Position numbers and translations under genes: made by a program
NCBI RefSeq assembly: GCF_003334255.1
Contig: NZ_QOWU01000055.1
Reading direction: 5' to 3' (one strand)
DNA length: 38,946 bases
Source of the DNA: Escherichia coli
Lineage (GTDB): Bacteria > Pseudomonadota > Gammaproteobacteria > Enterobacterales > Enterobacteriaceae
Shown here: in pieces, positions 5,631 through 10,017 of the stretch
How positions within the stretch are numbered: the stretch's first letter is position 1
Layout of the letters: each line of letters opens with the position of its first letter
The notes under the pieces: generated by a model
What the model saw: the letters and a program-made list of their open reading frames with translations, nothing else
Databases searched by the model: none
What the model was told of the DNA's origin: nothing

Positions 5631-6914
5631 TTACTTCTTCGCCTCTGCAACCACTTTACTACCCACGCCGCGGTTATTGTATTCCCACATGCGGTTGTAG
5701 TTAGTGTCATTCAGATTGCGCTGTATTTCGTCGTTATCATCTACGCTGCCGGTATTACCCGCAAACGGACGATTAGAGATCACCGCATCGGCCCACGGTT
5801 TAGCCGTGTTAAAACCTTCGTTGATGGCGCTATCACGGATCACCACCTGACCGTTGGTATTGGCATCAACATCCAGCGAGCGGCCCAGTTGCGCCACACC
5901 ATCACCGAAAGCATTGAAACGGCTGTTTACGGCGAGGAAACCGTAGTAAATGTTGGACAGCGTAGCCGGTGCAAACACATACGCTTCTTGCTGAGTACGT
6001 GAGTTCACCACGCGGAATTCGGTGTTATCGAACACCACTGCGCCGCGACCAGAAACGATATCCACATCCCCTTCAATGTAGCTGTTGGTCACCAGCGTAC
6101 GCGGCTGACGATTCGTTTCCAGACGGTTCTGCACACCGCTGTTGGTGACAAAGAAGGTGTTCTGACGACCGAGAATGTTAACGTTGTTAATCTGTACCTG
6201 GTCACCATCAGTACGCAGTGCCACCGCCGGATGGTTACCTGCATCTACGCTATCGCCCAGCGTGTTTTCGATGGTCAGATTTTGCAGTTGCAGGCCATTG
6301 TTTTGTGACCAGAAGACCGCAGAGCAGAGAACACCGATACTGTCGCTGCGTTTGCTCTGGCAGCTATCGTACATATACCACGCTGGTTTACCTGGCATAT
6401 ATTTGCCGCGCGGGTTGACGTCGTGACGCCAGTCGGCAGGGCTCATGCCACCATCAAGGGAAAGCCCAATCTTCACATCAATCGGTTTTTCACCTGTACC
6501 GTACAGAGTAATTCCACCCGGAGCGGCAGGGACATATACCGTTCCCTGATACTCACCAGGCATCACGGCAATATACTGGCGCTTGTTGGTACGCTTGATA
6601 ATTGCCGCATCTACCGCCGCCTGAATCGTGGTATGCGTTACACCTTGAGTGCCCGCCGGGCCGACAACAAAGTCAGGTTGCGCAGGCAGGGTAATCGGGG
6701 AAGGATTCCACGCTGCAGCACCTGGTGTCAGGGATGCAAAATAGTGTTGAGCATCGAAATTCTGCGCTTCTTTTGCCGACAGAATCGGGCGAGAAGAGGT
6801 ACCAGGCGCGGTTTGATCAGAAGGACGTTGATCGGGCGGGGTTGAGCTACAGGCGGTCAGCGTCACGCCAAAAGCCAATGCCAGCGCCAGACGGGAAACT
6901 GAAAATGTGTTCAC
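5631..6914 (-). CDS. ybhC: Outer-membrane lipoprotein, pectinesterase-like fold (putative esterase/thioesterase)
   Basis: 427-aa ORF with GTG start; N-terminus MNTFSVSRLALALAFGVTLTAC has a signal peptide plus lipobox (LTAC). Confidence 0.85.
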   Translation of the reverse strand: MNTFSVSRLALALAFGVTLTACSSTPPDQRPSDQTAPGTSSRPILSAKEAQNFDAQHYFASLTPGAAAWNPSPITLPAQPDFVVGPAGTQGVTHTTIQAAVDAAIIKRTNKRQYIAVMPGEYQGTVYVPAAPGGITLYGTGEKPIDVKIGLSLDGGMSPADWRHDVNPRGKYMPGKPAWYMYDSCQSKRSDSIGVLCSAVFWSQNNGLQLQNLTIENTLGDSVDAGNHPAVALRTDGDQVQINNVNILGRQNTFFVTNSGVQNRLETNRQPRTLVTNSYIEGDVDIVSGRGAVVFDNTEFRVVNSRTQQEAYVFAPATLSNIYYGFLAVNSRFNAFGDGVAQLGRSLDVDANTNGQVVIRDSAINEGFNTAKPWADAVISNRPFAGNTGSVDDNDEIQRNLNDTNYNRMWEYNNRGVGSKVVAEAKK

Positions 6915-7034
6915 AGGTTGCTCCGGGCTATGAAATAGAAAAATGAATCCGTTGAAGCCTGCTTTTTTATACTAACTTGAGCGAAACGGGAAGGTAAAAA
7001 GACAAAAAGTTGTTTTTAATACCTTTAAGTGATA

Positions 7035-7057
7035 CCAGATGGCATTGCGCCATCTGG
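7035..7057 (-). terminator. Hairpin (CCAGATGGC/GCCATCTGG) just downstream of the ybhB stop; possible terminator
   Basis: 9-bp inverted repeat with 5-nt loop, 9 bp beyond the ybhB stop on the minus strand. The downstream U-tract is weak, so confidence is low. Confidence 0.3.
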
Positions 7058-7065
7058 CAGAGTGA

Positions 7066-7542
7066 TTAACTAAACATCGCAGTAATCGAGGCGCTTGCCA
7101 GAGAGTGGAAATGAACGTTAAACCCGACCATCGCGCCGCTGGCACCTTCATCGACATCAATACGTTCTATATCCAGCGCGTGAACGGTAAAAATGTAGCG
7201 ATGAGTTTCGCCTTTCGGCGGTGCTGCGCCATCGTACCCGGTTTTACCAAAGTCGGTACGCGTCTGCAAAACGCCGTCTGGCATTGCTACCAGACCAGAG
7301 CCAAACCCTTGCGGTAATACGCGGGTATCAGCGGGTAAGTTAACAACTACCCAGTGCCACCAGCCGGAGCCGGTTGGCGCATCCGGGTCGTAGCAGGTGA
7401 CAACAAAACTTTTCGTTCCCGCAGGAACATCATCCCACGCCAGATGCGGTGAAATATTATCGCCATCGTAACCCATGCCGTTAAAGACATGACGATGCGG
7501 CAATTTATCGCCATCGCGCAGATCGTTACTGATGAGTTTCAT
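7066..7542 (-). CDS. ybhB: PEBP/Raf-kinase-inhibitor-like family protein
   Basis: 158-aa ORF; 58 bp downstream of bioA on the same strand, RBS AGGAGG upstream. Confidence 0.85.
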   Translation of the reverse strand: MKLISNDLRDGDKLPHRHVFNGMGYDGDNISPHLAWDDVPAGTKSFVVTCYDPDAPTGSGWWHWVVVNLPADTRVLPQGFGSGLVAMPDGVLQTRTDFGKTGYDGAAPPKGETHRYIFTVHALDIERIDVDEGASGAMVGFNVHFHSLASASITAMFS

Positions 7543-7600
7543 GAACCCTCCTTTCTTGTTTGCAGAAAGTGTAGCCAGAAACCCTCACGCGGACTTCTCG

Positions 7601-8890
7601 TTATTGGCAAAAAAATGTTTCATCCTGTACCGCGCGGTTAACCGCTGCGGTCAGACGCTGCAACTGTTGCGGGAGAATAATATAGGGCGGCATCAGGTAA
7701 ATCAGTTTGCCAAAAGGCCGGATCCAGACACCCTGTTCGACAAAGAATTTTTGCAGCGCCGCCATATTCACCGGATGAGTGGTTTCGACCACGCCAATGG
7801 CCCCCAGTACGCGCACATCGGCAACCATTTCGGCATCACGGGCGGGGGCAAGTTGCTCGCGCAGCTGTACTTCAATATCCGCCACCTGTTGCTGCCAGTC
7901 GCCAGATTCGAGAATCGCCAGGCTGGCGTTTGCTGCCGCGCAGGCCAGCGGATTGCCCATAAAAGTTGGCCCATGCATAAAGCAACCGGCTTCACCGTTA
8001 CTGATGGTTTCTGCAACCTCGCGCGTGGTGAGTGTGGCGGAAAGGGTCATTGTGCCGCCGGTTAAGGCTTTACCGAGGCACAAAATGTCCGGCGCGATTT
8101 CTGCATGTTCACAGGCAAACAGTTTCCCGGTACGACCAAATCCAGTGGCGATCTCGTCGGCAATCAGCAAGATACCTTCGCGATCGCATATTTTGCGGAT
8201 TCGTTTTAACCATTCCGGATGGTACATGCGCATCCCGCCTGCGCCCTGGACAATCGGCTCAATGATCACCGCCGCGATTTCATGACGATGCGCCGCCATC
8301 AGGCGGGCAAAGCCCACCATATCGCGCTCATCCCATTCGCCATCCATGCGGCTTTGCGGGGCGGGAGCAAACAGGTTTTCTGGCAGGTAGCCTTTCCACA
8401 GACTGTGCATTGAGTTATCCGGATCGCACACCGACATCGCGCCAAAGGTATCGCCATGATAACCATTGCGGAAGGTCAGAAAACGCTGGCGCGCTTCGCC
8501 TTTGGCTTGCCAGTACTGCAACGCCATTTTCATCGCCACTTCCACCGCTACGGAACCGGAGTCCGCGAGAAAAACGCACTCCAGCGGTTGCGGCGTCATC
8601 GCCACCAGTTTGCGGCACAGCTCAATGGCTGGCGCATGGGTGATACCGCCAAACATCACATGCGACATGGCATCAATTTGCGACTTCATCGCCGCATTAA
8701 GCTGCGGGTGATTGTAGCCGTGGATCGCCGCCCACCAGGACGACATACCGTCAACCAGGCGTCTGCCGTCAGACAAAATCAGCTCGCAACCTTCGGCGCT
8801 CACCACCGGATAAACCGGCAGAGGGGAGGTCATGGATGTGTATGGGTGCCAGATATGGCGTTGGTCAAAGGCAAGATCGTCCGTTGTCAT
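7601..8890 (-). CDS. bioA: Adenosylmethionine-8-amino-7-oxononanoate aminotransferase (DAPA aminotransferase)
   Basis: ORF track frame 7601..9001; start at ATG giving [17 protein letters not shown] (429 aa); class-III aminotransferase; divergent from bioB across the bio operator. Confidence 0.93.
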
Positions 8891-8894
8891 AATC

Positions 8895-8934
8895 GACTTG
8901 TAAACCAAATTGAAAAGATTTAGGTTTACAAGTC
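8895..8934. promoter_or_regulatory. bioO: bio operator (BirA-biotinyl-AMP binding site) within the divergent bioA/bioBFCD promoters
   Basis: Imperfect palindrome TTGTAAACCAAATTGAAAAGATTTAGGTTTACAAG at 8898-8932, matching the known bio operator, between divergent bioA and bioB starts. Confidence 0.85.
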
Positions 8935-8976
8935 TACACCGAATTAACAACAAAAAACACGTTTTGGAGAAGCCCC

Positions 8977-10017
8977 ATGGCTCACCGCCCACGCTGGACA
9001 TTGTCGCAAGTCACAGAATTATTTGAAAAACCGTTGCTGGATCTGCTGTTTGAAGCGCAGCAGGTGCATCGCCAGCATTTCGATCCTCGTCAGGTGCAGG
9101 TCAGCACGTTGCTGTCGATTAAGACCGGAGCTTGTCCGGAAGATTGCAAATACTGCCCGCAAAGCTCGCGCTACAAAACCGGGCTGGAAGCCGAGCGGTT
9201 GATGGAAGTTGAACAGGTGCTGGAGTCGGCGCGCAAAGCGAAAGCGGCAGGATCGACGCGCTTCTGTATGGGCGCGGCGTGGAAGAATCCCCACGAACGC
9301 GATATGCCGTACCTGGAACAAATGGTGCAGGGGGTAAAAGCGATGGGGCTGGAGGCGTGTATGACGCTGGGCACGTTGAGTGAATCTCAGGCGCAGCGCC
9401 TCGCGAACGCCGGGCTGGATTACTACAACCACAACCTGGACACCTCGCCGGAGTTTTACGGCAATATCATCACCACACGCACTTATCAGGAACGCCTCGA
9501 TACGCTGGAAAAAGTGCGCGATGCCGGGATCAAAGTCTGTTCTGGCGGCATTGTGGGCTTAGGCGAAACGGTAAAAGATCGCGCCGGATTATTGCTGCAA
9601 CTGGCAAACCTGCCGACGCCGCCGGAAAGCGTGCCAATCAACATGCTGGTGAAGGTGAAAGGCACGCCGCTTGCCGATAACGATGATGTCGATGCCTTTG
9701 ATTTTATTCGCACCATTGCGGTCGCGCGGATCATGATGCCAACCTCTTACGTGCGCCTTTCTGCCGGACGCGAGCAGATGAACGAACAGACTCAGGCGAT
9801 GTGCTTTATGGCAGGCGCAAACTCGATTTTCTACGGTTGCAAACTGCTGACCACGCCGAATCCGGAAGAAGATAAAGACCTGCAACTGTTCCGCAAACTG
9901 GGGCTAAATCCGCAGCAAACTGCCGTGCTGGCAGGGGATAACGAACAACAGCAACGTCTTGAACAGGCGCTGATGACCCCGGACACCGACGAATATTACA
10001 ACGCGGCAGCATTATGA
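8977..10017 (+). CDS. bioB: Biotin synthase (radical SAM)
   Basis: 346-aa ORF with CxxxCxxC radical-SAM motif (CPEDCKYC). Confidence 0.95.

Follow-up and report, generated by a model that had tools for sequence, protein, structure and literature searches.

In Escherichia coli the gene ybhB, which encodes a protein of the PEBP family, lies directly downstream of the biotin biosynthesis gene bioA, raising the question as to whether ybhB is transcribed and regulated with bioA, and whether the pairing of the two genes reflects a common function. We have examined this in a stretch of E. coli DNA of 38,946 nucleotides (contig NZ_QOWU01000055.1), referred to here as the window, for which an original prediction made from the sequence alone had proposed that ybhB is co-transcribed with bioA and regulated by BirA together with it, and that this constitutes an unexplained functional pairing.

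The bioA-ybhB junction is already known, its gene order having been known since the bio operon was sequenced; in that work, reportedly by Otsuka et al. in 1988 in J Biol Chem, the leftward unit is said to consist of bioA and a downstream 158-codon 'ORF1', now ybhB. Positions 6900 to 9100, the part of the 38.9-kb window to which the comparison was limited, are 100% identical to E. coli K-12 MG1655, and the same stretch occurs in all but one of the 5,426 complete genomes of E. coli (5,425). The locus, gene order, operator and end of the unit after ybhB are those of the leftward unit of the divergent E. coli bio operon, and the sequence is without any difference. What the present analysis adds to the known bioA-ORF1 unit is evidence against a purely passive dependence of ybhB on the bioA promoter.

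Table 1. Features of the bioA-ybhB locus and of related loci. Positions are those of the window unless a locus is named.
Feature	Position	Strand	Basis or remark
ybhC	5631-6914	-	Next gene after ybhB and its 3′ hairpin
End of transcription unit: 11-bp hairpin (7059-7033) and mapped RNA 3′ end at ~7030	7030-7059	-	Fold and Term-seq
ybhB, 158 aa, cytoplasmic PEBP / YbhB-YbcL family protein	7066-7542	-	PF01161, NF007609 and PDB matches
bioA-ybhB intergenic spacer, 58 nt	7543-7600	-	No terminator-like site, no Rfam match
ybhB ribosome-binding site AGGAGG	7547-7552	-	4 nt before ATG
Hairpin of the original prediction, CUUUCU-N7-AGAAAG	7551-7569	-	6-bp stem, 7-nt loop
Putative -10-type promoter element GGCTACACTT (7576-7567)	7565-7576	-	Conservation and fit to sigma-S consensus
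First spacer hairpin: AGAAGUCC, 6-nt loop, then GGGUUUCU	7577-7598	-	Minimum-free-energy fold of spacer
bioA (adenosylmethionine-8-amino-7-oxononanoate transaminase), 429 aa	7601-8890	-	RefSeq annotation of identical MG1655 stretch, translation
bio operator (BirA binding site)	8895-8934	.	40-bp imperfect palindrome between divergent bioA and bioB
IS element in E. coli A37	L094 4712-6000; junction at window ~7543-7546		InsQ/TnpB frameshifted
Cluster curA, DJ-1-like gene, ybhB	L016, L020, L093		
Cluster DJ-1-like gene, ybhB	L011, L012, L017, L090, L092		

The features that bear on the question are collected in Table 1. At the head of bioA is an inverted repeat with arms at 8895-8909 and 8920-8934 that are 93% complementary, which we take to be bioO from established knowledge of the E. 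coli bio operon; the bioA unit begins with this BirA operator, and a direct reading of the spacer reveals no second copy of it near ybhB. A longer bioA reading frame of 466 aa is a mechanical upstream extension that crosses the operator. The bioA stop codon (TAA, 7601-7603) and the ybhB start codon (ATG, 7542-7540) are on the same strand and separated by 58 nt, as had been predicted, and the AGGAGG proposed as ybhB's own ribosome-binding site is indeed in place at 7552-7547. Of 21 related loci for which this was computed, 20 have a GGAG/GAGG core 5′ of the ybhB start codon; in the one remaining (L082) it is GAGG, picked by the same rule. The gene product is YbhB itself, of the bacterial YbhB/YbcL branch of the PEBP/RKIP family (crystal structures 1FJJ and 1FUX, the latter being the paralogue YbcL). 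It matches PF01161 over residues 23-157 (E = 6.9e-42), NCBIfam NF007609 at 343.5 bits (cut-off 226) and TIGR00481 at 196 bits (cut-off 57.75), and its full length matches PDB entries 1FJJ_A and 1VI3_A (E about 1e-110), YbhB being a crystallised protein with a solved PEBP fold.

The spacer contains no terminator-like site in a terminator scan, and neither of its hairpins is followed by the U run that characterizes an intrinsic terminator. In Term-seq (Adams et al. 2021) ybhB has a 3′ end that is strong and classed as 'primary', at position 807397(-) of NC_000913.3, and bioA has none listed. Both the scan and Term-seq agree with the original prediction, to which no terminator was evident between the two genes. 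The sequence printed with the ybhB 3′ end corresponds to the hairpin at 7059-7033, which has a folding energy of -19.4 kcal/mol (z = -5.7), with none of 200 shuffles as stable. We presume the 3′ end to lie at about window position 7030, as judged from the printed 61-nt string and K-12 coordinates. The stable hairpin and the mapped 3′ end just downstream of it are what is expected of an intrinsic terminator after ybhB; its poor U tract (UAUCACUU) explains why it escaped the consensus scan. Beyond this terminator hairpin another hairpin (AAGGUAUUAAAAACAACUUUUUGUCUUUUUACCUU) is predicted at 6990-7030 on the minus strand, with the mapped 3′ end on one side of it and the lambda attachment core described below on the other, and the 81-nt region has a fold z-score of -6.97.

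We have compared the expression of the two genes in 24 conditions taken from PRECISE, an RNA-seq matrix in the supplement of Sastry et al. (2019), in which ybhB is b0773 and bioA is b0774. Log TPM values in these conditions correlate at 0.88 for bioA and bioB, at 0.44 for ybhB and bioA, at 0.29 for ybhB and bioB, and at 0.76 for ybhB and ybgS. Across the same 24 conditions bioA varies 12-fold and the ratio of ybhB to bioA TPM extends from 0.86 to 6.7, so that ybhB is never clearly under bioA, the lowest ratio being 0.86. A ratio near 1 is seen only when bioA is derepressed; in all seven of the conditions with bioA above 250 TPM it lies between 0.86 and 1.21. There are also increases in ybhB in which bioA takes no part. 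At pH 5 ybhB rises 2.3-fold with bioA unchanged, for a ratio of 3.5-4.3, and with cytidine or glutamine as a poor nitrogen source the ratio is 4.8-6.7 (6.7 with glutamine), with bioA unchanged or lower. Relative to bioA, the rise of ybhB at pH 5 and on poor nitrogen sources is 2- to 7-fold. By its r values and these bioA-independent changes, ybhB in these conditions does not follow the other bio genes as a member of the bio regulon would.

Two matched pairs of conditions are informative as to read-through. Between the control and the condition with no trace elements bioA gains 177 and ybhB 152, and between wild type with iron and delta-fur with iron bioA gains 223 and ybhB 126; in both pairs the ybhB gain is ~0.6-0.9 of the bioA gain and the stress marker is little changed. 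The marker, ybgS, is sigma-S dependent, and in a log-space model of these conditions bioA adds nothing to ybhB once ybgS is included. A read-through term in a linear-space regression has a t of 0.9-2.3, which is weak support, and the highest-bioA conditions among the 24 are those of iron chelation, which are also stress conditions. An older array study lists ybhB with rpsV, osmC, yciEF, yjbJ and dsrB among the genes induced by lethal stresses. The observations that bear on possible co-transcription are the lack of a terminator, the lack of a mapped 3′ end and, within the 24 conditions, a TPM floor near 1:1. The pattern of ybhB relative to bioA is the one expected for read-through combined with an independent promoter.

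The spacer contains a candidate for such a promoter. Within GGCTACACTT is the hexamer TACACT, at 7573-7568, with a C at position -13, and GCTACACTTTC at 7575-7565 fits the consensus KCTAYRCTTAA at 9 of 11 positions, the -13 C included. This is the sigma-S -10 consensus of Weber et al. 2005, as quoted in PMC5650638, and the fit, with its C at -13, is conserved across genera. There is no -35 element at GGCTACACTT, which accounts for the absence of a call there in a sigma-70 scan; the sole minus-strand hit of that scan, at 7484-7456, is inside ybhB and downstream of its start codon, and is irrelevant.

For comparison we gathered ybhB loci from one genome per species together with assembled contigs. 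Spacers that directly separate bioA from ybhB are 36-70 nt long and unalignable beyond close relatives. CTAYRCT is present in 14 of the 18 direct spacers, 24-37 nt 5′ of the ATG (shuffles give a mean of 0.18 and a maximum of 3), and two more are one base off the motif; four of the 18 lack an exact match. Judged by these comparisons, GGCTACACTT is the one conserved feature of otherwise diverged spacers. The same site was described by Tsoy & Mushegian (2022; PMC8793217), who reported TACACTT upstream of enterobacterial ybhB with no nearby -35 and left its significance open; we found it independently, and add to their description the -13 C and sigma-S -10 flanks, the fixed distance to the start codon, and a shift of the element to the head of a curA or DJ-1-like gene in loci described below. 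With its match at 9 of the 11 consensus positions, its -13 C, its lack of a -35 and the induction of ybhB by stress, it resembles -10-only promoters of sigma-S (RpoS), although the corresponding Yokenella sequence, CTAAAAT, is equally suited to sigma-70. We infer sigma-S dependence of the ybhB promoter from the motif fit and from covariation with a single marker gene, ybgS, and the predicted start site is at about 7560-7562. The limited supplement text available for SMRT-Cappable-seq, Cappable-seq and sigma-S ChIP-seq, which possibly lacks gene names, does not name ybhB.

An alternative explanation is that the CTACACT element is a regulator binding site or an RNA processing signal and not a promoter, with which the lack of a -35, the lack of a retrieved start site and the open meaning in PMC8793217 would agree. 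However, the element has no palindromic symmetry, it keeps a fixed distance of 24-37 nt to the start codon, conservation falls on the -13 C and on the T, A and last T that mark a -10 hexamer, and it always heads the first gene after bioA. We regard this explanation as distinctly improbable.

Two variants of the spacer are of note. E. coli E118 (L098) has a natural CTGCACT for CTACACT, at the equivalent of window position 7572 and in this one of seven aligned E. coli strains; it replaces with G the -11 A of the putative -10 hexamer, as a rule the most critical of its bases. In a Pantoea genome (L083, 2935-2960) the spacer opens with CGCCGC-N8-GCGGCG followed by GTTTTG, which is terminator-like and lies directly after bioA, and the CTAYRCT motif is missing. 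From this hairpin and the missing motif, the coupling of bioA to ybhB probably differs between families.

The original prediction drew attention to a small hairpin, CTTTCT...AGAAAG, at about 7552-7570. The hairpin is there, one base from this position (7551-7569), with its arms at 7569-7564 (CTTTCT) and 7556-7551 (AGAAAG); the 5′ arm takes in the final two bases of the -10 hexamer, and the 3′ arm shares 2 nt with the ybhB ribosome-binding site. It is unremarkable and not beyond chance expectation: the bare stem has an energy of -3.9 kcal/mol, a perfect 6-bp stem occurs in 6% of spacer shuffles, and fold z-scores are -0.63 for the whole spacer and -0.87 for an 86-nt context, with -1.86 for a 31-nt piece that was chosen after the hairpin had been seen. 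The other spacer hairpin, at 7577-7598, contains G-U pairs and has no U tract behind it, and given the whole-spacer z-score of -0.63 it is not distinguishable from chance. The arms of the 7551-7569 hairpin are invariant among seven E. coli strains and differ in E. albertii by one C-to-U change, giving a G-U pair. The Citrobacter spacer folds differently and those of other genera are unalignable, and by this comparison the hairpin appears not to be kept outside Escherichia. Compensatory changes in the arms were looked for in E. coli and E. albertii, the distant spacers being unalignable, and there is no covariation evidence either way. An Rfam scan of 6800-9100 gives no match in the spacer; a weak match to DicF inside bioA, at 8610-8664 on the minus strand (E = 0.37), reaches 19.6 bits where the gathering score is 48, and was taken as chance.

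The position of this hairpin raises the possibility that it is a regulatory RNA element, masking the ybhB ribosome-binding site in read-through transcripts only. Since the hairpin begins inside the element, an RNA started ~7 nt past GGCTACACTT, near 7561, would be without its 5′ arm, and the hairpin would thus be missing from a short mRNA. Partition functions were computed for 21 loci, with shuffled upstream sequence as the control. The ribosome-binding sites of L008, L012 and L018 are predicted to be paired in the long RNA but not in the short one, which lends this some encouragement, as does Kluyvera, where a perfect 14-bp helix ends within the ribosome-binding site. In E. coli, however, the core of the site is predicted to be 0.72 unpaired in the read-through RNA, which is more open than 95% of controls, ranks against shuffles run from 0.00 to 0.99 over the 21 loci with no trend, and the stem itself, at -3.9 kcal/mol, is equalled in 6% of shuffles. 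Masking restricted to read-through RNA was accordingly rejected, there being no consistent effect and E. coli going the opposite way; we give a regulatory role scarcely any credence, and on this modelling the hairpin appears incidental, with no detectable role.

A different structure is seen in the spacers of Kluyvera and Pseudocitrobacter (L008, L009 and L029), which have in common the perfect palindrome TTAATCAGTA(A/G)ATTAA; E. coli does not have it. It lies between the -10 motif and the ribosome-binding site, half of it is found in L082, and in Kluyvera it forms the centre of the 14-bp helix mentioned above. An operator is one possibility, an RNA structure another, in either case peculiar to these genera.

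Whether the pairing of bioA and ybhB is functional can be approached through its distribution, and the proposed functional pairing does not hold up as a conserved association. At 60 loci from orders other than Enterobacterales, no bioA is found within 4 kb of the ybhB homologue (48-63% identical). Among 5,426 complete E. coli genomes, 342 (6%), with Nissle 1917 among them, have an IS element between the two genes. The inserted element is 1.29 kb long and of IS200/IS605 type, with an InsQ/TnpB gene in the opposite orientation, and lies between the AGGAGGG of the ribosome-binding site and the ybhB ATG; the reading frame of the split-off ybhB is intact and the IS end provides a new GGAGG 7 nt before the ATG. 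In E. coli RM14721 (L095), IS1A and prophage-type genes (essD, rrrD and trkG) abut the end of bioA with a break at window ~7586, cutting the spacer within its first 15 nt, and ybhB no longer adjoins bioA. Pantoea sp. Nvir, a symbiont of Nezara viridula, retains only the last 65 codons of bioA (L014, 3714-3908; 55% identity) beside a full-length ybhB (74% identity), with uvrB about 1.4 kb further upstream and bioBFCD not detected; from the remnant and the undetected bioBFCD, the bio genes have apparently been lost and ybhB kept. The far side of ybhB varies among genera, being occupied by ybhC, pgl, a permease or a mechanosensitive channel, and the bioA side is kept in many, but since the kept adjacency traces to one ancestral arrangement it counts as a single data point. 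The bioA-ybhB linkage is most likely positional, a feature of Enterobacterales gene order, and a biotin-related function of ybhB is not supported; in the literature searched, ybhB occurs with BirA, biotin or bioA only in mentions of strain construction.

Other genes are also found between bioA and ybhB. A 226-aa DJ-1/PfpI-like gene is so placed in Siccibacter, Buttiauxella and two other enterobacteria, and in Erwinia billingiae and Acerihabitans it is preceded, still between bioA and ybhB, by curA. Rahnella (L020) has curA, the DJ-1-like gene and ybhB with no bioA within 4 kb. The Rahnella curA matches NF058644 at 595 bits (cut-off 440), and that of Acerihabitans shares 64% identity with the Rahnella gene; the curA of Erwinia billingiae was identified by its alcohol-dehydrogenase Pfam domains only. 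In several Enterobacterales a tight cluster ends in ybhB, preceded by a DJ-1/PfpI-like gene, with or without curA (an NADPH-dependent enone reductase). CTAYRCT stands before the DJ-1-like gene in L011, L012, L090 and L092, before curA in L016 and L093, and also 5′ of curA in Rahnella; the DJ-1-like gene is 10-45 nt from ybhB in these clusters, with no motif between. In Erwinia endophytica, where a DJ-1-like gene also lies between bioA and ybhB, there is no motif in the 386-nt gap. Neither curA nor a DJ-1-like gene occurs within 4 kb of the ybhB homologue at any of the 60 loci outside Enterobacterales. The simplest reading of these arrangements would be a stress-type unit with its own promoter beside bioA, of which only ybhB is left in Escherichia, Citrobacter, Kluyvera and others.

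We think it probable that ybhB has two inputs, bioA read-through and a spacer promoter, that its co-regulation with bioA is only partial, that the linkage is positional, and that the hairpin is incidental. Transcripts from the BirA-controlled bioA promoter would pass unterminated through the 58-nt spacer and continue across ybhB as far as the hairpin at about 7030, providing a biotin-responsive floor of ybhB expression at roughly the level of bioA. The spacer promoter, -10-only (GGCTACACTT) and of the type read by sigma-S RNA polymerase, would start near 7561 and be the main driver of ybhB in ordinary, biotin-replete conditions, giving a short ybhB-only mRNA with a ~19-nt leader that would be translated from its own AGGAGG. 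The adjacency to bioA would then be a remnant of a stress-type (curA)-(DJ-1-like)-ybhB unit, reduced to ybhB alone in Escherichia. Such an arrangement is not a special class; operons with an internal promoter for a distal gene likewise have two inputs and no terminator between the genes, and ybhB is likewise at or above the level of bioA in the 24 conditions (lowest ratio 0.86), read-through with an own promoter being the usual architecture.

Two other accounts of ybhB transcription warrant consideration. One is that bioA and ybhB form a true operon, expressed essentially only from the BirA-repressed promoter, with a role for the PEBP protein in biotin metabolism. Consistent with this are the common strand, the 58-nt gap with no terminator, the operator upstream of bioA, the approximate equality of ybhB and bioA under bioA derepression in the conditions sampled, and the adjacency of the genes, which persists in 19 additional loci representing over 12 named Enterobacterales genera despite the changing far-side gene. 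It does not account for ybhB at 3.5-6.7 times bioA with bioA unchanged, for an r of 0.44 as against 0.88 for bioA and bioB, for the conserved -10 element in the spacer, for the lack of linkage outside Enterobacterales, for the IS insertions and other genes between bioA and ybhB, or for the keeping of ybhB after bioA decay, and we consider it very improbable. Of the proposal that ybhB is co-transcribed with bioA and BirA-regulated, co-transcription is plausible, with no terminator or 3′ end between the genes, the operator at the head of bioA and the ratio floor of 0.86, but sole control by BirA is unsupported given the conserved -10 element, the bioA-independent rises and the r of 0.44. The original prediction had named an independent ybhB promoter among the findings that would speak against it, and the conserved -10 element and bioA-independent expression go most of the way to providing one.

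The other account is that ybhB is fully separate, the bioA RNA ending or being degraded before ybhB, with no response to biotin and with the tracking of bioA due to shared stress induction. In the sampled conditions bioA explains no extra ybhB variance in log space with the stress marker in the model, the highest-bioA conditions are those of iron-chelation stress, and a terminator-like hairpin does lie directly after bioA in Pantoea. E. coli, however, has neither a terminator-like structure nor a mapped 3′ end between the genes; the ratio never falls under 0.86 across the 12-fold range of bioA, and ybhB rises with bioA in the delta-fur with iron and no-trace-element conditions with the marker little changed. 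We consider full separation unlikely, and favor the combination of read-through with a spacer promoter.

A functional basis for the adjacency can nonetheless be imagined, in which curA, the DJ-1-like gene and ybhB form a damage-control module for a by-product of BioA. S-adenosyl-4-methylthio-2-oxobutanoate decays to a reactive unsaturated 2-oxo acid. It is the by-product of BioA, for which S-adenosylmethionine is the amino donor, and is a dead-end metabolite with no known consuming enzyme in EcoCyc or the iJO1366 model. More speculatively, the three genes would suit the detoxification of reactive carbonyl compounds, and a small-molecule action has been proposed for the PEBP family (Tsoy & Mushegian; PMC8793217). 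If this were true, read-through would furnish ybhB at just those times when BioA is produced, and the PEBP protein would act on a small molecule, but we regard it as a long shot.

The far side of ybhB has a feature of its own. The 15-bp lambda attachment core GCTTTTTTATACTAA occurs once in the window, at 6961-6975 on the plus strand, and has exactly the sequence annotated as the attP core of lambda (NC_001416, 27724-27738). Located ~55 nt past the ybhB terminator, with the 3′ end of ybhB on one side and ybhC on the other, it may explain both the variable far side of ybhB and the ybhB-bioAB deletions in lambda-derived engineering strains.

As a discovery these findings are of small value, the gene order being long known and the conserved upstream element having been published in 2022, but there are practical consequences. 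Annotation of ybhB as a BirA-only operon member is to be avoided, and engineered strains with a ybhB-bioAB deletion or with markers placed between ybhC and ybhB touch a stress-type unit beside the lambda attachment site. For the function of bacterial PEBP proteins, the partnership with curA and the DJ-1-like gene is a better lead than the link to biotin.
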